This document shows, piece after piece, positions 6,822-21,411 of a stretch of 54,345 nucleotides of DNA. The position numbers and the translations under genes are program-made. Positions within the stretch are counted from its first letter, which is position 1, and each line of letters opens with the position of its first letter. The stretch spans positions 1 to 54,345 of the forward strand of contig JBDLTL010000003.1 in the NCBI GenBank assembly GCA_039799085.1, in the 5' to 3' direction. Source of the stretch: Candidatus Parcubacteria bacterium. Its GTDB lineage: Bacteria > Patescibacteriota > Minisyncoccia > Phycocordibacterales > UBA918. The notes under the pieces were generated by a model. The model was given only the letters and a program-made list of their open reading frames with translations. It ran no database searches and was not told where the DNA came from.

Positions 6822-7099
6822 AATGTCTCAGTTACTATAAAAAATAAACACTCCCACGCGACCGACACAGCAAGTTCAGTCTGGTCATTCTAGCACGGGG
6901 TCGCTGCAAGCAAGTAGTTTGGACACAAGTCCTCGCTTTTTTTTATGCTTAGTGGTATGATTTTCCGGCGAAATTCGAACTATCACGAGTTTGCAAAGAG
7001 TACAGCGAGCTGTTTAAGGACCTCGGGATGTAAGCAAAGCTTCCAACCCTGGCTCGAAGCTTAAATGTAAAACTAAACTTTTGCATTTATCTTATCACT

Positions 7100-7170
7100 C
7101 GGGATGTAGCATAATGGTAGTGTACGCGGTTTGGGACCGTGTGGCCCGGGTTCGATTCCCGGCTTCCCGA
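7100..7170 (+). tRNA. tRNA-Pro(TGG)
   Basis: CGGGATG start, anticodon arm CGCGG-TT-TGG-GA-CCGTG, CCGGGTTCGATTCCCGG T-arm; terminator at about 7178-7206. Confidence 0.93.
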
Positions 7171-7235
7171 CAAAATAAAGACAGCTGACGAAAGTCGGCT
7201 GTTTTTATATCTAAATGTTGAAATGTATATAAATA

Positions 7236-7777
7236 TGTTTCACGTGGCACATAAAACCCTGTTTCATATGGAACTTAGAGATATTTTGTTTTTTCTTAAG
7301 CTTATTTCACATGAGACAATACTTAAGGTGTCACACGATTATGTCTGGTAAGTATTTGATAGTTGCATATCTTTCACGTGGAACAATTCTTACCGAAATA
7401 ACATCAATTTGCCACTCTCCCTCATAATTATGTTCCATCAGCCAGCTTTCGATTGTTCGATACATACGCTGGATCTTTTTCTCATGTACATTTTCCTCAG
7501 GACGCCAGGTTCCATATGAAACAGCGTTTAAAAGTTGCTGCTTTGTTTCATATGAAACTGTTTTGACTTCCACAAAGTGAATTATAGTCTTATTTTTAGA
7601 TGTTTCACGTGACACAATATCAATTTCGCCCCATTTTTTAAGGTAATTTGTCTCAATTGTCACGAAGCCTTTCCTTTTGAGATAGTTACTGGCAATCTCT
7701 TCACCATATGCCCCAACTCTATTCTTGTCTCCTTTCTTTTCAATCTGTTTCATATGGAACTTGTTTCACGTGGCACA
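7236..7777. promoter_or_regulatory. parS: cluster of nine parS-like 16-bp palindromes
   Basis: matches to TGTTNCACGTGAAACA at 7236, 7260, 7303, 7370, 7508, 7544, 7601, 7746, 7762. Confidence 0.85.
7331..7753 (-). CDS. yraN: YraN (UPF0102) family PD-(D/E)XK nuclease
   Basis: G..GEEIA..YL...G......NY....GEIDIV and FVEVK motifs. Confidence 0.92.
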   Translation of the reverse strand: MKQIEKKGDKNRVGAYGEEIASNYLKRKGFVTIETNYLKKWGEIDIVSRETSKNKTIIHFVEVKTVSYETKQQLLNAVSYGTWRPEENVHEKKIQRMYRTIESWLMEHNYEGEWQIDVISVRIVPRERYATIKYLPDIIV

Positions 7778-7830
7778 TATATTGAAATTAGAATCTGAAT
7801 TGAATATTCTGAATAATCGTAGCATTTCAG

Positions 7831-7896
7831 ACTGTCTTTTATAAAGGACAGTACACATAATTGTCCTTTATCCACCTATCCACTCAGTTATCCACA
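7831..7896. promoter_or_regulatory. TAAAGGACA operator-like repeats plus DnaA box upstream of yraN
   Basis: TGTCTTTTA 7833, TAAAGGACA 7842, TGTCCTTTA 7862; TTATCCACA 7888-7896; minus-strand TGCTACGAT -10 at about 7817-7825. Confidence 0.55.
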
Positions 7897-7942
7897 TATT
7901 GCAAAGGCCCGGGCATTTCTGCTCGGGCCAGTGCATCAGCTC

Positions 7943-8287
7943 TCAATCTTTGAGAGCAATGCTGAAAGAGGGGAGTACGAGATCTTGAAGCCAGCACTTT
8001 TCGGTTGCCAGCAGCGTGCCTTTCTTGAGACAGAGTGCATCCACATATTCATTCCCATTTTCGTGGGTATGAATGCTGCCACAGAAGAGAATTGCTGGGT
8101 GAAACCCCGTAGTGTCTTCAGAAAGAATCTGAACCACCGTTCCAGGTGAAGAGATGATTAATTCAAGCTCTTTCTGACCTGCGAGAGAAGCTCCCTCCAT
8201 TGTTGCCAAAACCTCTCGCAGGGTGGGATAATTGGCATCTTTTCGTTTTCGTACCTCCTCGAAAGGAACAAGTTTCTCAACATTCAT
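7943..8287 (-). CDS. hypothetical protein
   Basis: 114-aa ORF filling the gap, hairpin downstream at 7905-7929. Confidence 0.55.
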   Translation of the reverse strand: MNVEKLVPFEEVRKRKDANYPTLREVLATMEGASLAGQKELELIISSPGTVVQILSEDTTGFHPAILFCGSIHTHENGNEYVDALCLKKGTLLATEKCWLQDLVLPSFSIALKD

Positions 8288-8407
8288 AACAAATAACCTT
8301 CGATGCTTTAGGGATGTCGATTATATTTCTAACCTCTTATACGAATAAGAACCCTAATTCTTACAAATTCAACAGAAAAAGCGCCAAAATAGGCGCTCTT
8401 CTGACTC

Positions 8408-8581
8408 TTGGTGCGGCCAGAGGGAATCGGTCACAAGTCGCTCCTTTCAGTCGCGCTCGCGACCCCGACTCGGCGACAAGCCCTCACTTCGTTCGTCTTG
8501 TGTACCGCCTCCGTCTTTCGATTCTCCTTAGCCACTACCAACAGCAAAGGCCCAGAAGTATTCACTTTCTGGGCCTGCTGA
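8408..8581 (-). repeat. tRNA-Gly 3' tail element with 22-bp duplication of the tRNA 3' end
   Basis: TTGGTGCGGCCAGAGGGAATCG at both 8408-8429 and 8582-8603; inverted degenerate copy at 8517-8535. Confidence 0.85.
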
Positions 8582-8582
8582 T

Positions 8583-8656
8583 TGGTGCGGCCAGAGGGAA
8601 TCGAACCCTCCACTAATCCTTGGCAAGGACTCATTATACCACTTAACCATGGCCGC
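8583..8656 (-). tRNA. tRNA-Gly(GCC)
   Basis: GCGGCCA/TGGCCGC acceptor, AGTCC-TT-GCC-AA-GGATT anticodon arm, encoded CCA. Confidence 0.95.
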
Positions 8657-8657
8657 A

Positions 8658-9326
8658 TTATTTTGCTAAGTCTCTTAGCGCTAGTTCAATCCATCGATTG
8701 AGTTTATGCTTCAAAACTGTGTTGCCGATTATAGTATTTCCAACGCCAAAGTGCAACGTCTCCTTGGTCTTTTGACTGTTGATGTACTGATTCTTGTAAA
8801 ACTGAGCGTAGGGGAGGGTTGTGGCTGTTTTCCAGCGTTTCATACAAGTTTCCTCAGACTGACCTTTGTATAGCAATATCCAAAAATGAATATCCTTTTT
8901 CTCAGCTCCAAGGAACCCAAGTGCAAACTTAATGAAAAGCTTGTGCGCTCCAAGCGAAGTACCAGAAAGACGTATCTGGCGCTCGTTTTTCATATCACCC
9001 TGAGTCAGATAGAGCATAAGCCCCGCCACAAACAGGGGATTGTCTTTGTAGTGCTTATACTCTGTCTCAGCTGAACGCACCGCTTCTTTATACCGATGGG
9101 CTCGCTCGCCACTACGCGCCTTACTCATAAGCTGCAACCGTTTCGCATTCTCAACTCCAGCACGCTTCTTATTCTGCTTCGTTACATTCTCTGAAATAAC
9201 GTTATTTTTCAACCATTTTGAGACCGTACTCTTTGACACATCACATATCTTTGCAACCTCTTCCAGAGTAAAACCTCTCTTTCGAAACTCCAAAGCCTGT
9301 TGGTACTTGCCCTCATTACGAACCAT
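8658..9326 (-). CDS. HTH plus LAGLIDADG-like domain protein
   Basis: N-terminal HTH (GFTLEEVAKICDVSKSTVSKWL); LFVAGLMLYLTQGD helix resembles the GLMLYWAEG motif of CPR/actinobacterial LAGLIDADG-like proteins. Confidence 0.65.
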   Translation of the reverse strand: MVRNEGKYQQALEFRKRGFTLEEVAKICDVSKSTVSKWLKNNVISENVTKQNKKRAGVENAKRLQLMSKARSGERAHRYKEAVRSAETEYKHYKDNPLFVAGLMLYLTQGDMKNERQIRLSGTSLGAHKLFIKFALGFLGAEKKDIHFWILLYKGQSEETCMKRWKTATTLPYAQFYKNQYINSQKTKETLHFGVGNTIIGNTVLKHKLNRWIELALRDLAK

Positions 9327-9434
9327 ATAGTTAGTATATTATATATGAATTATATATGTTTCGTTTGCCATTATACACAGAAAAGGCCCGGGATATTCCG
9401 AGCCTCTCTTTCTCTTCGCTAACAAGTAATCGCG

Positions 9435-9719
9435 TTAAGAATCTCCTTTGATTTCCTCAGCCACAACCACTATCCAACCCTGTGGACCAACAACAGCTGA
9501 GTGCGGGGTACCGGGCGGCACATCAAACCGTTCCCCAAGCTTTACTTCACGTTTTTTACCGTTAAAATCAAACGTAATCGAGCCATCAGTGACAAAAAGA
9601 CTAACCTTACCCTTATGCGCATGCTCTTCATAGATGGTGTCAGGAGCATCTTGCCATTCATAAATACTCAAAAATCCCTCGTCTTCAAATTTCTTAATCC
9701 ACCGTTCAGACAATTCCAT
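9435..9719 (-). CDS. cupin domain protein
   Basis: HAH...LFV.DGS and GERFDVPPGTPHSA cupin motifs; start moved to MELSE. Confidence 0.85.
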   Translation of the reverse strand: MELSERWIKKFEDEGFLSIYEWQDAPDTIYEEHAHKGKVSLFVTDGSITFDFNGKKREVKLGERFDVPPGTPHSAVVGPQGWIVVVAEEIKGDS

Positions 9720-9787
9720 ACCCGAATGATACAACCAGTGAATCCTCGTTGCAAAAGCGCTGATTTCACCGTATGATGCTACGCACT

Positions 9788-9859
9788 GCACCTATGGTGA
9801 AATGGATATCACAACTGACTTCGGATCAGTCGTTCTGGGTTCGAGTCCTGGTAGGTGCA
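9788..9859 (+). tRNA. tRNA-Arg(TCG)
   Basis: GCACCTA/TAGGTGC acceptor, ACTGA-CT-TCG-GA-TCAGT anticodon arm, TTCGAGT T-loop. Confidence 0.95.
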
Positions 9860-9860
9860 C

Positions 9861-10006
9861 CTGAAATAGTAATGCCGGCTTTATGCCGGTTTTGCTATTT
9901 TAGGCCTAGGGACTCGAAGCCCGATTGAGCTGGATTGTGAGCCCTGCGAAACAATCCAGCCAATTGGGATACTGGCTCTGTAAGAGCCGAGTCCTGGTAG
10001 GTGCAC
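9861..10006 (+). repeat. tRNA-Arg 3' tail element with 19-bp duplication of the tRNA 3' end
   Basis: CGAGTCCTGGTAGGTGCAC at 9842-9860 and 9988-10006; inverted degenerate copy GCCTAGGGACTCGAA at 9904-9918. Confidence 0.85.
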
Positions 10007-10051
10007 AAACGAGAGAAACGCCTTTGGGCGTTTTTCTGTTAGAATATACAC

Positions 10052-11524
10052 GTGAAAATTAGTAATACTGATATACCGTTAGTCGTCCGCCAGACTGCGG
10101 AAACACTAGAAAACGCTGGGTTTGAAGCGTATCTTGTCGGAGGCTGCGTTCGTGACTTACTACGCAGCAAGGCTCCCAAAGACTGGGACCTCACCACCGA
10201 TGCTCATCCTGAACAAATTCAGGCGCTTTTCGTGGAACACTATGCGAATAACGATTTTGGAACAATTGGGGTAAAAACTGAGGACGAAGACCCTACCCTC
10301 GCAGTCATTGAAATCACCCCATATCGTAGTGAAAGCGGTTACACGGACCTTAGACGACCAGATACTGTGACTTTTGGCGTTTCACTCGATGAAGACTTAG
10401 CGCGTCGTGACTTCACCGTAAATGCGCTCGCATACCGTCCAAAGACCGGAGTTTTGGTAGATCACTTCGACGGACTTTCTGACCTGGCTGCCAAGCGACT
10501 CGCGACAGTAGGGGACGCTCACGAGCGATTCAATGAAGACGCTCTCCGCATGATGCGTGCAGTACGCTTAGCAGCTGAGCTCGGTTTTGTTATTGATGGC
10601 GAAACAATGACCGCGATAGCTGAAAATAACCTTCTTTTAAAGCGCATTTCAATCGAACGTGTAGCCGCTGAATTCTCTCGCCTTATCGCCTCAAAAGAGC
10701 CAATGCAGGGTATTATTTTCCTTGAAAAATTAGGTTTGCTTCAACACGTTATTCCAGAGCTTCGCGATGGAATCGACTGTGAGCAGGGAGGTATCCATGC
10801 CTACGACGTACTTGAGCACAACCTTCGCACTCTCCAAGCAGCTGCTGACAAAGATTTTTCGTTCCACGTTCGTCTTGCTGCTCTGTTACACGACATTGGT
10901 AAACCAGCAACCAGGAGAACGGGTGGCAAAAACAAGCACTACACCTTCTTTGGTCACGAAGTAGTGGGAGCGAGAATGACAAAAAGCATTCTTGAACGCC
11001 TCAAAATGCCTCGTGAAACCATAGATATCGTGGTCAATCTGGTCCGCTGGCACATGTTTTTCTCTGATCCAGACCAAATCACGCTCTCTGCGGTACGTCG
11101 GACCATCACAAGAATAGGGGAGGAGCACATCGAAGACCTCCTCAACCTCCGTGTTTGTGATCGTATTGGCACCGGACGCCCAAAAGAACAGCCCTTCCGC
11201 TTCCGCAAATACAAAGCCATGGTTGATGAAGCACTCCGTGACCCTATTTCAGTAAAGATGCTCAAGGTGAATGGTGATCGCATCATGGAAATGACCGGAG
11301 AAAAGCCAGGGAAGCGACTTGGATACGTATTACACGCTCTTCTTGAAGAAGCATTGGAGGACAGCACTAAAAATACAGCTCAATATATGGAAAAAAGAGC
11401 TATCGAGTTACTTGATTTGCCTGAAAGTGACCTGGTCGAGCTCGCCGAGGCAGGGAAGCGTAGACAAGCCGAAGAGGAAGCACAAGCTCTAAGGGACATC
11501 GCCCGGGAACATAAGGTAGGATAG
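10052..11524 (+). CDS. cca: CCA tRNA nucleotidyltransferase with HD domain
   Basis: VGGCVRD, DWDLTT, RRDFTVNA, EDALRMMR, LLHDIGK motifs. Confidence 0.93.
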   Translation: MKISNTDIPLVVRQTAETLENAGFEAYLVGGCVRDLLRSKAPKDWDLTTDAHPEQIQALFVEHYANNDFGTIGVKTEDEDPTLAVIEITPYRSESGYTDLRRPDTVTFGVSLDEDLARRDFTVNALAYRPKTGVLVDHFDGLSDLAAKRLATVGDAHERFNEDALRMMRAVRLAAELGFVIDGETMTAIAENNLLLKRISIERVAAEFSRLIASKEPMQGIIFLEKLGLLQHVIPELRDGIDCEQGGIHAYDVLEHNLRTLQAAADKDFSFHVRLAALLHDIGKPATRRTGGKNKHYTFFGHEVVGARMTKSILERLKMPRETIDIVVNLVRWHMFFSDPDQITLSAVRRTITRIGEEHIEDLLNLRVCDRIGTGRPKEQPFRFRKYKAMVDEALRDPISVKMLKVNGDRIMEMTGEKPGKRLGYVLHALLEEALEDSTKNTAQYMEKRAIELLDLPESDLVELAEAGKRRQAEEEAQALRDIAREHKVG

Positions 11525-20314: not shown

Positions 20315-21229
20315 TTATTTCCCGTGAAATTTTTTATGCACCTCGCGTAAGTGCTTGTCGGTGACGTGTGTGTACACCTGGGTTGTACCGATGTTGGCAT
20401 GACCAAGCAGAGCCTGTACCGAACGAAGGTCGGCACCATTACTCAAAAGGTCAGTCGCGAAACTATGTCGAATAACGTGCGGTGTCACCTTGCGAGTGAT
20501 GCCTGCCTTGCCAGCATAAAACTTAATAAGTCGCTGTACCGCTCGGGGTTGAAGTCGCGAGTCGCCGCCATCATTTGCCTTTCGTCCGTAGCGGACAAAG
20601 AGGGGTTCTTCCAAATCCTTCCGGGCACCTAAGTACTCCCGGAGAAATTTCTTCGCTGCTTCAGAGAGAAACACCACCCGGACTTTATCTCCCTTTCCTC
20701 TTACAGAAAACTCATCACGAGTTAAATCAACATCATCAATCGAAAGCCCGCACAGCTCGGAGATACGGAGCCCGGTAGAAAAGAAGAGTTCAAGAATTGC
20801 TCGGTCTCGCTTGCCCTCGAGTGTCTTGATATCTGGAGCATTGAGCAAACGCTTGAGCTCAGTTGCGGTAATGAGGTCAAGTGAACGTTCTGGCACCTTA
20901 GCGAGCTCAATGCGCTCAGGGGAGAGAGCTTCGATGCCACGCTTCCGCAAAAACTTGAGAAACGCTCTAAGCGCAATGAGGTAGTAGTTCTGCGTGCGGC
21001 GTTTCATGGGCTCGACCTTACCACCGATCTTACTTCCTGCCTGCCGGTTAAGGTGCAAGCGAAACTCGCGAATCTGAGTTTCACTGAGCTGTGAAACTGT
21101 CTTGACCTTCGCAAAAGCGAAAAAACGCTCAAGATAGCGATCGTAGTTCTCAACCGTCTTCACACTCCTACCCCTTTCGATTTCAAGGTACTCAAGAAAT
21201 TGACGTTTCAGTTCCACTAAGTCAGTCAT
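20315..21229 (-). CDS. xerC: tyrosine recombinase XerC/XerD
   Basis: TGLRISEL, GKGDKVR, HVIRHSFAT, LLGH, TTQVYTHV; start moved to MTDLV. Confidence 0.9.
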   Translation of the reverse strand: MTDLVELKRQFLEYLEIERGRSVKTVENYDRYLERFFAFAKVKTVSQLSETQIREFRLHLNRQAGSKIGGKVEPMKRRTQNYYLIALRAFLKFLRKRGIEALSPERIELAKVPERSLDLITATELKRLLNAPDIKTLEGKRDRAILELFFSTGLRISELCGLSIDDVDLTRDEFSVRGKGDKVRVVFLSEAAKKFLREYLGARKDLEEPLFVRYGRKANDGGDSRLQPRAVQRLIKFYAGKAGITRKVTPHVIRHSFATDLLSNGADLRSVQALLGHANIGTTQVYTHVTDKHLREVHKKFHGK

Positions 21230-21324
21230 AACACTTATTATAGCAAGATTATGAGACTGTTTTGACGGAGTGGGAAACACGTTCTGTAATCTTGCTTTTT
21301 TACAAATATATGCTATAGTAGAAA

Positions 21325-21411
21325 CACCTTCGCAGGTAATCGACCGCACCAGGTGGTAACTCTCGTTTTGAGTAGTATCTATACGACCGGCTGCGTAACT
21401 AATATAAACCT
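21325..21411 (+). promoter_or_regulatory. structured rpsO 5' leader (putative S15 autoregulatory RNA)
   Basis: TGCTATAGT -10 at 21311; CGCAG...CTGCG closing stem enclosing ACTC/GAGT hairpin. Confidence 0.5.

Follow-up and report, generated by a model that had tools for sequence, protein, structure and literature searches.

Two tRNA tails in the window and the units behind them

The stretch analysed here, which we call the window, comprises 54,345 nucleotides (nt) of a Candidatus Parcubacteria bacterium (assembly GCA_039799085.1, contig JBDLTL010000003.1, positions 1 to 54,345 of the forward strand), and our subject is a pair of short units that lie directly behind two of its tRNA genes. The genome that holds the window (G000) has 864 kb in 40 contigs, with 47% G+C, 37 tRNA genes and 98% completeness; Patescibacteria as a group have tiny genomes with very few recognisable mobile elements. 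ARAGORN places four tRNA genes in the window, among them tRNA-Gly(GCC) on the minus strand (8583-8656) and tRNA-Arg(TCG) on the plus strand (9788-9861), and Rfam agrees, with the end of tRNA-Arg at 9859. The initial annotation had described a shared 3′ architecture at these two genes, and we recovered both repeats, both antisense segments and the order of the hairpins. Read in the orientation of the tRNA, each gene is followed by a first hairpin, a degenerate antisense (inverted) copy of the tRNA 3′ end, here called A′, a long hairpin and then a short one, an exact duplicate of the tail and a second terminator-like hairpin. Both duplicates start at the C of the T-loop TTCGA (C56).

Behind tRNA-Gly(GCC), which encodes its CCA and contributes its final ~21 nt as copy 1 of the repeat, an exact direct repeat of 22 nt lies at 8408-8429 and 8582-8603, with a spacing of 174. 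All parts of this unit are read on the minus strand. The first hairpin (8541-8582, with arms at 8548-8557/8567-8576) sits directly 3′ of the tRNA, and its outer stem and loop are conserved in a group of units that we term family A. Next comes A′ (8517-8540), which faces tRNA positions ~54-76; taken over 30 nt (8517-8546), it is 70% complementary to the tRNA-Gly 3′ end. The family-A core hairpin (8467-8516) and a right-end hairpin (8430-8466) follow, the latter ending in GTGAC, with a closing pair that uses C56 of the duplicate. The 22-nt tail copy itself runs from C56 through CCA (8408-8429), and the second terminator-like hairpin stands at 8376-8403.

The unit behind tRNA-Arg(TCG) lies wholly on the plus strand and is delimited by an exact 19-nt repeat (9842-9860 and 9988-10006, spacing 146), copy 1 of which is the last ~19 nt of the tRNA. 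Its terminator-like first hairpin (9862-9904) is followed by a short A′ (9905-9918). The antisense match, 15 nt at 9910-9924 with 87% complementarity to the tRNA-Arg T-arm, extends over no more than T-loop, T-stem and four further bases. A long hairpin of family B (9920-9968, arms 9929-9938/9951-9960) and a short right-end hairpin that closes on the duplicate's C56 (9974-9988) lead to the 19-nt tail copy (9988-10006), beyond which lies the second terminator-like hairpin (10012-10037, arms 10012-10022/10027-10037), orthologous to the terminator after tRNA-Arg in the relative G065. The internal sequences of the two units differ because each carries another core family, A or B.

To score the repeats, we aligned the last 28 nt of each tRNA locally to its 500-nt downstream region and shuffled 100 times per tRNA. 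The Gly and Arg tails scored 42 and 38, against per-tRNA shuffle maxima of 18-28 over all 37 tRNAs; the threshold was set at ≥30, the highest shuffle score being 28. The predicted folds were likewise better than those of shuffled sequences (z = −5.98 for the Gly unit and −8.78 for the Arg unit, with 0 of 200 shuffles equally good in either case), and in both folds A′ and the duplicate form a closing stem around two hairpins. The hairpins that the initial annotation had called terminators have the expected shape, and the label is used here for shape alone because a simple terminator scan flags, on its own strand, only the first Arg hairpin (9874-9890, plus strand). The hairpin at 10016-10033 was flagged on the opposite strand only, and none of the Gly-unit hairpins was flagged, their T-runs being weak. 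No open reading frame (ORF) belongs to either window unit. Covariance-model searches against Rfam (cmscan, E ≤ 1 on window positions 7000-11000 and E ≤ 0.1 on 20 loci of G000 with other units) returned only tRNA, tmRNA and sub-threshold chance matches; no Rfam family, RF00391 (rtT/RttR) included, matched the units in the window or at the 20 loci.

Between the two tRNAs the window encodes a 222-amino-acid (aa) helix-turn-helix (HTH) protein and a cupin (ORFs 8658-9326 and 9435-9791, both on the minus strand). The gene for the CCA-adding enzyme (10052-11524, plus strand) follows the Arg unit, and the synteny of tRNA-Arg with this gene is kept in most of the genus.

Units at other tRNAs, at rpsI and among relatives

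The pattern extends to further tRNAs; had it not, the initial annotation would have counted its idea as refuted. At the threshold given above, 14 of the 37 tRNAs of G000, over a third, carry a sense and/or an antisense tail copy downstream. A sense copy was found by score at 13 tRNAs, two of which were then dropped and do not count among the 14, namely tRNA-Cys, where the match was the neighbouring tRNA-Leu, and tRNA-Ile(TAT), where it was a different partial duplication. Only the antisense copy was detected at Leu-caa, Ala-tgc and Arg-gcg; here the duplicate is shortened to 7-10 nt and A′ is intact. The tmRNA gene (C8:22041-22437), which Rfam detects and ARAGORN misses and whose T-loop is non-canonical, also carries a unit, with a split antisense copy. 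In eight cases of this genome A′ ends 63-67 nt after the tRNA, and at Thr-ggt and Tyr an additional hairpin separates its acceptor complement from its T-arm complement. Core A lies behind Gly-gcc, Gln-ctg, Ala-tgc, Arg-gcg, Leu-caa and Ser-gct, core B behind Arg-tcg and Leu-taa, and further cores are present. Nearly all units have a right end made of a hairpin and then GTGAC or a similar sequence that abuts C56.

Some loci of G000 depart from this simple layout. At tRNA-Gln(CTG) (C1:40005-41230) an A-type unit is followed by a gene for a 198-aa HTH protein (XRE-type) and then by a second core that ends in an exact tail copy, which makes a composite of ~1.1 kb. tRNA-Ile(TAT) (C8:15233-15307) shows a different kind of rearrangement, in which 32 nt from the anticodon to the T-arm recur 38 nt downstream and 29 nt of the 5′ part recur ~60 nt upstream. 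A conserved module of ~55-60 nt occupies the loops of GC-rich terminator-like hairpins with variable stems (C13:12720-12800, C32:1773-1831, C23:8092-8169, C9:8037-8104, C8:23327-23393) and is also nested at the A′ end in the Leu-caa and Ser-gct units.

Of 41 relatives sampled, 18 had a match to core A; within the genus these were 12 of 24 genomes, and outside it 5 of the order's 16 other families gave a match. An even sample of the phylum yielded matches in 2 of 401 genomes, G000 counted, so that core A is confined to the order in that sample. The core-A matches listed come from metagenome-assembled genomes labelled Nomura-, Yonath-, Kaiser-, Campbell- and Taylorbacteria and from other Paceibacteria. 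A pattern scan of species genomes for family A gave at least 118 stretches, and the 80 loci examined hold at least 83 copies. Among the matches listed, 64 have a tRNA or tmRNA on the same strand within 3 kb upstream, 49 of these at a distance of 69-82 nt, and at least 17 amino-acid types of tRNA are represented. The 19 copies without a called tRNA include five with a tRNA tail at the edge of the locus and two that lie too near the edge for a decision; the rest stand behind another unit or other DNA. For family B we scanned metagenome contigs, where the pattern occurs in at least 120 stretches. The 80 contigs examined hold at least 84 copies, 64 of them with an upstream tRNA, and cover at least 13 amino-acid types among the matches listed. 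Neither the core-A nor the core-B pattern was found in viral contigs. Unit sizes are uniform (100-200 nt), and the more than 160 copies of the two families contain no coding remnant.

Empty and filled alleles, which the initial annotation had proposed to compare, are both present among relatives at tRNA-Arg(TCG), tRNA-Gly(GCC) and rpsI. tRNA-Arg(TCG) stands beside the gene for the CCA-adding enzyme in 27 of the 30 loci fetched from the genus. The score thresholds were passed by 10 of the 27, and by eye at least five more carry cores but no recognisable duplicate. The site is empty, with only a terminator or the next gene, in at least four (G054, G043, G013 and G055), and it holds two consecutive units in G007, G016, G001 and G018; the closest relatives, G012 and G065, have other inserts there. 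tRNA-Gly(GCC) is filled at four of seven loci. In G012 the ortholog of the window's A unit is separated from this tRNA by a B-type unit, and the tRNA end in use lacks the CCA that the older copy keeps. Comparison of this order with that in G000, the sole array that can be dated, places the newer unit next to the tRNA. At one locus two units are identical at 196 of 196 positions. Among contigs of four DNA runs compared with positions 7900-10500 of the window, a low-depth contig of run X5 joins position 9841 of the window to 9988 without the 146-bp unit, and with 19 ambiguous bases and few shared words it is a weak hint of an empty Arg allele.

The most informative target is rpsI. Its 3′ end is T-loop-like and followed by a terminator, and we located it in 27 of 30 genus loci (in G000 at C5:25176-25345). 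In six of the 27 (G000, G051, G074, G059, G060 and G072) a core of a further type, D, stands behind an inverted copy of the rpsI end of that same genome, and where genomes differ synonymously the copy differs with them. Other inserts with an inverted rpsI copy were recognised by eye in at least eight further loci of the 27; at least 12, the closest relative G012 included, show nothing but the terminator and lack such a copy. Synonymous changes set the rpsI end in use, together with its hairpin, apart from the displaced end and terminator beyond the unit in G051 and G074, where A′ matches the end in use. This suggests that a unit brings A′ along with a hairpin and a replacement for the gene end. 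We rejected pure fold-back copying as the source of A′, as the bulges of family A are constant across tRNAs and the hairpin and gene end of G051 and G074 came from elsewhere.

The antisense segment and the folded cores

The antisense part does track the host tRNA, as had been claimed from the two window units. We scored only the specific part of the tail, with the T-loop start left out, in 52 tRNA-adjacent family-A units. The mean score of A′ against its own tRNA was 24.1, compared with 11.8 against other tRNAs, and 77% of the own scores lie above the 95th percentile of the other-tRNA scores. Many A′ among the family-A copies are perfect complements. In family B, A′ often spans only the T-loop and T-stem, which are common to many tRNAs.

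The further proposal of the initial annotation, that A′ acts as a guide, fared less well. Here A′, as RNA or single-stranded DNA, would pair with the target and direct a trans-acting enzyme, like bridge RNAs or the exon-binding sites of introns. Its complementarity to the target in ~100 adjacent copies of two families and in the synonymous variants of rpsI, its lack at empty rpsI sites and its fixed distance from the tRNA end all agree with such a role. However, A′ is already paired in cis with the unit's own copy of the 3′ end, and in family B it often reaches barely beyond the T-arm shared by many tRNAs. Its mismatches are mostly transitions and show no wobble bias, since 16 are compatible with wobble on the tRNA-sense strand versus 18 on the other. 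A′ is matched when young and later decays, so that it would be needed at most transiently. Near-identical cores stand behind 13-17 tRNA types, which would require a guide of ~20 nt and the duplicate to change together; point mutation cannot do this, and we know of no mechanism by which a new guide and duplicate are acquired together. In addition, no IS110, TnpB or Y1 enzyme was found in G000, and its sole reverse transcriptase is retron-like. We regard a guide function as unlikely.

The cores themselves are conserved as structures. For core A, an alignment of 14 sequences predicts 20 consensus pairs, and at four of them both bases have changed in compensation (in 4 of 14 sequences, for instance, C-G is replaced by G-C); identity reaches 85-93% across families of the order. 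The right-end hairpin has one G-U pair without any variation, and its stem ends in a pair formed with the duplicate's C56. In family A the same small bulges recur behind different tRNAs, and the family-A loop has one orientation in all copies seen, on which ground we rejected flip-flop hairpins. Covariation is strong in core B, where 70 distinct copies show three to four pair types at many positions of the long hairpin and of the short right-end hairpin, five pairs of which covary. The invariant G-U pair of core B is not counted because it lies inside the search pattern. That of core A indicates that it is the tRNA-sense strand that folds, whether as RNA or as single-stranded DNA.

The units resemble the repeats of E. 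coli tyrT, which have been known, together with RttR, since the 1970s and which number 3.14 copies. We examined the corresponding region of E. coli K-12 (NC_000913.3:1286000-1288200) and found three full 178-bp units behind tyrV, each ending in an exact 19-nt copy of the tRNA-Tyr tail from the T-loop. Each unit also contains a 17/20 antisense match to the tRNA-Tyr tail, including 10 exact bases, ~59 nt after the preceding copy. The annotated small RNA RttR begins 8 nt downstream of the tRNA and stops where the first copy ends; in its predicted fold the antisense segment and this copy form a closing stem. Published work states that a single repeat unit of the tyrT operon encodes rttR (PMC3318445, with reference to Bosl and Kersten 1991) and that rtT RNA is involved in processing of the tyrT transcript and probably in the stringent response, with an unknown mode of action (bioRxiv 10.1101/2024.07.17.603846). 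Both systems thus have units in tandem behind a tRNA, a tail copy from the T-loop start at the end and an internal antisense segment that pairs with it. They differ in that there is no sequence or Rfam match between them and that the E. coli unit lacks a terminator-like first hairpin, contains a small ORF (tpr) and is known at only one tRNA. The likeness is a precedent and not a mechanism, since the origin of the tyrT repeats is also unexplained. Full-text literature searches found no prior description of elements like ours, although supplements could hold relevant tables.

On the model of RttR, A′, core and duplicate could be co-transcribed with the tRNA as a trailer, excised by the tRNA-maturation enzymes and kept as a stable small RNA whose 3′ end is tRNA-like, and the units would have spread mainly through homologous recombination among conserved tRNA genes. 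The closing stem would mimic the helix of acceptor and T-stem and so attract these enzymes, and the role could be in processing, in the stress response or as a decoy. We consider this explanation possible, if on the unlikely side; the initial annotation had likewise offered an RNA family that would regulate tRNA maturation, and this remains a live rival because RttR of E. coli has the same layout. It would account for the closing stem in the folds of both window units, for the invariant G-U pair on the tRNA-sense strand in core A and for cores that keep 85-93% identity across families with compensatory changes. Nevertheless, the terminator-like first hairpin would keep most transcripts from reaching A′, and the shortened duplicates behind Ala-tgc, Arg-gcg and Leu-caa, with A′ intact, mean that the closing stem is not maintained. 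The mismatches in A′ show no wobble bias, presence and absence among close relatives and arrays of mixed families are unlike a housekeeping RNA, RF00391 gave no match, and the fold of RttR itself is not better than those of its shuffles (z = −1.06).

Proposed gene-less insertion and its possible routes

The initial annotation had also put forward a non-autonomous mini-element that targets tRNAs, and this part of it is supported by the many copies, the several core families, the filled and empty sites, the arrays and the lack of any gene inside the units. The reading that we favour, with about even confidence, is that the units are gene-less insertion cassettes that enter by a Campbell-type insertion at a T-loop-like site, with A′ as a hairpin arm and not a guide. 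The target would be a T-loop-like site followed by a hairpin, as found at the 3′ ends of tRNAs and tmRNA and at the end of rpsI. A cassette would consist of a replacement 3′ end from about C56, a terminator-like hairpin, A′, the folded core and a right-end hairpin closing on C56. Its own copy of the 3′ end would recombine with the resident T-loop and 3′ end, leaving the gene intact and pushing the old 3′ end downstream as the duplicate; with repeated insertion, arrays would grow in which the newest unit adjoins the tRNA. A′ would form one arm of a long imperfect hairpin with the 3′ end borne by the cassette or, equally, with the displaced copy, and its match to the host tRNA would follow from the need for a partner that works as a tRNA tail. 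Cores may be swapped between tRNA-specific ‘adaptors’ at two junctions derived from the T-loop. Such core exchange would place one core family behind 13-17 tRNA types and would make it easier for versions fitted to another tRNA to arise. What we observe is the anatomy, the covariation, the polymorphism, the unit order in the sole datable array, the tracking by A′, its lack at empty sites and 3′ ends in use that are unlike the displaced ones; how a cassette moves as DNA, how it recombines and which enzyme, from the host or from a transient helper, would act on it in trans are parts that we infer. The transcript of such a cassette may also be processed like RttR of E. coli, and the two readings are compatible.

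Where copy 1 and the duplicate differ within the repeat, A′ agrees with copy 1 at 28 positions, with the duplicate at four and with neither at two (a hand count with T54 and T55 left out), as expected if A′ and the end in use arrived together; the count is biased, as A′ was aligned to copy 1, and decay of an unused duplicate gives the same direction. Several points weigh against insertion of cassettes. The mismatches of A′ described above look like neutral decay, and over 22 nt the A′ of the window's Gly unit departs at five positions from the near-perfect A′ of its G012 ortholog. How a matched A′ and 3′ end are acquired for a new tRNA is unexplained, and cores conserved this strongly might just as well serve the host as RNA. 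Two chimeras were seen, one (L269) with tRNA and A′ of one allele and core and duplicate of another, and one (L256) in the opposite direction; they indicate recombination at the junction of A′ and core, and also that ordinary homologous recombination reshapes the sites. No free or circular form of a unit was seen, and no enzyme that co-occurs with the units was found in G000 or in 61 genomes of the genus. The large serine recombinases of G000 were set aside as movers, the family being present in only 3 of the 61.

The profile searches behind these statements covered the main classes of transposase. G000 had no match to Y1 transposases (PF01797), which the same search detected in 6 of 14 control genomes, to the IS110 DEDD transposase (PF01548; control 7 of 14) or to TnpB (PF07282). 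The absence of Y2/IS91 matches (PF04986) in G000 is a weak blank, as the control was positive in 0 of 14 genomes. The one tyrosine recombinase of G000 is Xer-type (20315-21349 of the window, minus strand; PF00589) and would be the candidate trans-acting enzyme; most of the 61 genus genomes likewise have a single one. The only reverse transcriptase (307 aa, retron-like, C2:44166-45089) lies next to tRNA-Glu(TTC) and beside a 623-aa DNA methyltransferase-like gene. It was set aside as a mover in view of this defence-like neighbourhood and the lack of a link to the units.

G000 encodes four serine recombinases. Two large ones, 37% identical to each other (C17:12230-13981 and C18:15918-17672), abut tRNA-Glu(CTC) and tRNA-His; both reading frames end antisense inside the tRNA, and their C-terminal GIEP motif is encoded by the antisense T-arm. 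At a distance of 6.8 kb past tRNA-Glu there is a family-A remnant whose A′ and duplicate are of the Glu type. For tRNA-His, a displaced tail was also looked for, and only chance 11-12-mers in coding regions came up. These islands and the remnant are in line with another explanation, in which the units are ordinary scars, that is, attL/attR remnants of larger islands or prophages that integrated at the T-loop and lost their interior. A direct repeat of the tRNA tail from the T-loop start, as the units have, is reportedly the classic footprint of T-loop-class integration (Williams 2002). Nonetheless, we judge scars to be very improbable. The units measure a uniform 100-200 nt, their structured cores covary, and over 160 copies lack a coding remnant; most genomes of the genus have one Xer-type recombinase, the cores are absent from viral contigs, and A′ has no counterpart in classical att sites. 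Ordinary attR scars had been named at the outset as an outcome that would overturn the mini-element, and on these grounds the units are not of that kind.

Compared with T-loop-class elements of the P4 and CIME-like type, the units share the site in the T-loop, the restored 3′ end, the displaced end as a direct repeat, the arrays and tmRNA as a target. They differ in having no integrase in or near them or, mostly, in their genomes, in measuring 100-200 nt instead of kilobases, and in carrying an inverted copy of the target and conserved, folded, non-coding cores. Small size, lack of genes, abundant hairpins, a single orientation, hairpins close to both ends and a right-end cut at the foot of a hairpin are shared with palindrome-associated elements derived from IS200/IS605 (PATEs), IS91/Helitron and REPIN elements and with miniature inverted-repeat transposable elements (MITEs). 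There is, however, no Y1 match here, the end copies derive from the target, and none of these families is known to make a 19-22-nt target repeat. MITEs are defined by element-specific terminal inverted repeats and a short fixed duplication; in our units the pair of A′ and duplicate changes with the host tRNA, and 19-22 nt of the target are repeated. We also rejected an intron in the T-loop, as several essential tRNAs encoded only once have a truncated second tail copy.

As a working analogy for how cassettes might enter, we compared the units with the attC sites of integrons and with the folded attP of CTX-phi, which is used by Xer. Common to all are a fixed boundary in a short conserved site and an imperfect hairpin in which the bulges are conserved and the sequence varies. 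Like integron cassettes, the units stack at one entry site, the newer nearest to it in the sole datable pair. The only tyrosine recombinase of G000 is Xer-like. Unlike in integrons, a general PF00589 search gave no IntI, the cassettes are mostly non-coding, and one hairpin arm doubles as a working tRNA tail; nor does the T-loop motif fit the R-box consensus GTTRRRY. A fully integron-like system, with entry at the T-loop of any tRNA or tmRNA gene, a folded recombination site made of a working tRNA tail and its complement, arrival as single strands (for instance, following natural uptake of DNA), the cell's own Xer recombinase, newest-first stacking and core swaps at junctions derived from the T-loop, and with the tyrT repeats of E. 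coli as a fossil of it, strikes us as decidedly unlikely in that specific form.

If the units are mobile, they move without a gene of their own and, in most hosts, without a known transposase or integrase, which would amount to an unrecognised route of insertion that may exploit host recombination or tRNA-like structure. If they are RNAs, they form a large unrecognised class of small RNAs linked to tRNAs. Either way, they give the first comparative context for the tyrT/RttR repeats of E. coli.

The units are a source of error in annotation and assembly as well: gene callers report spurious overlapping ORFs of 40-100 aa, and contigs break at the units. In the relative G051 (locus L053) a perfect inverted copy of at least 53 nt of tRNA-Arg(TCG) follows the terminator of this tRNA and runs up to the end of the contig.

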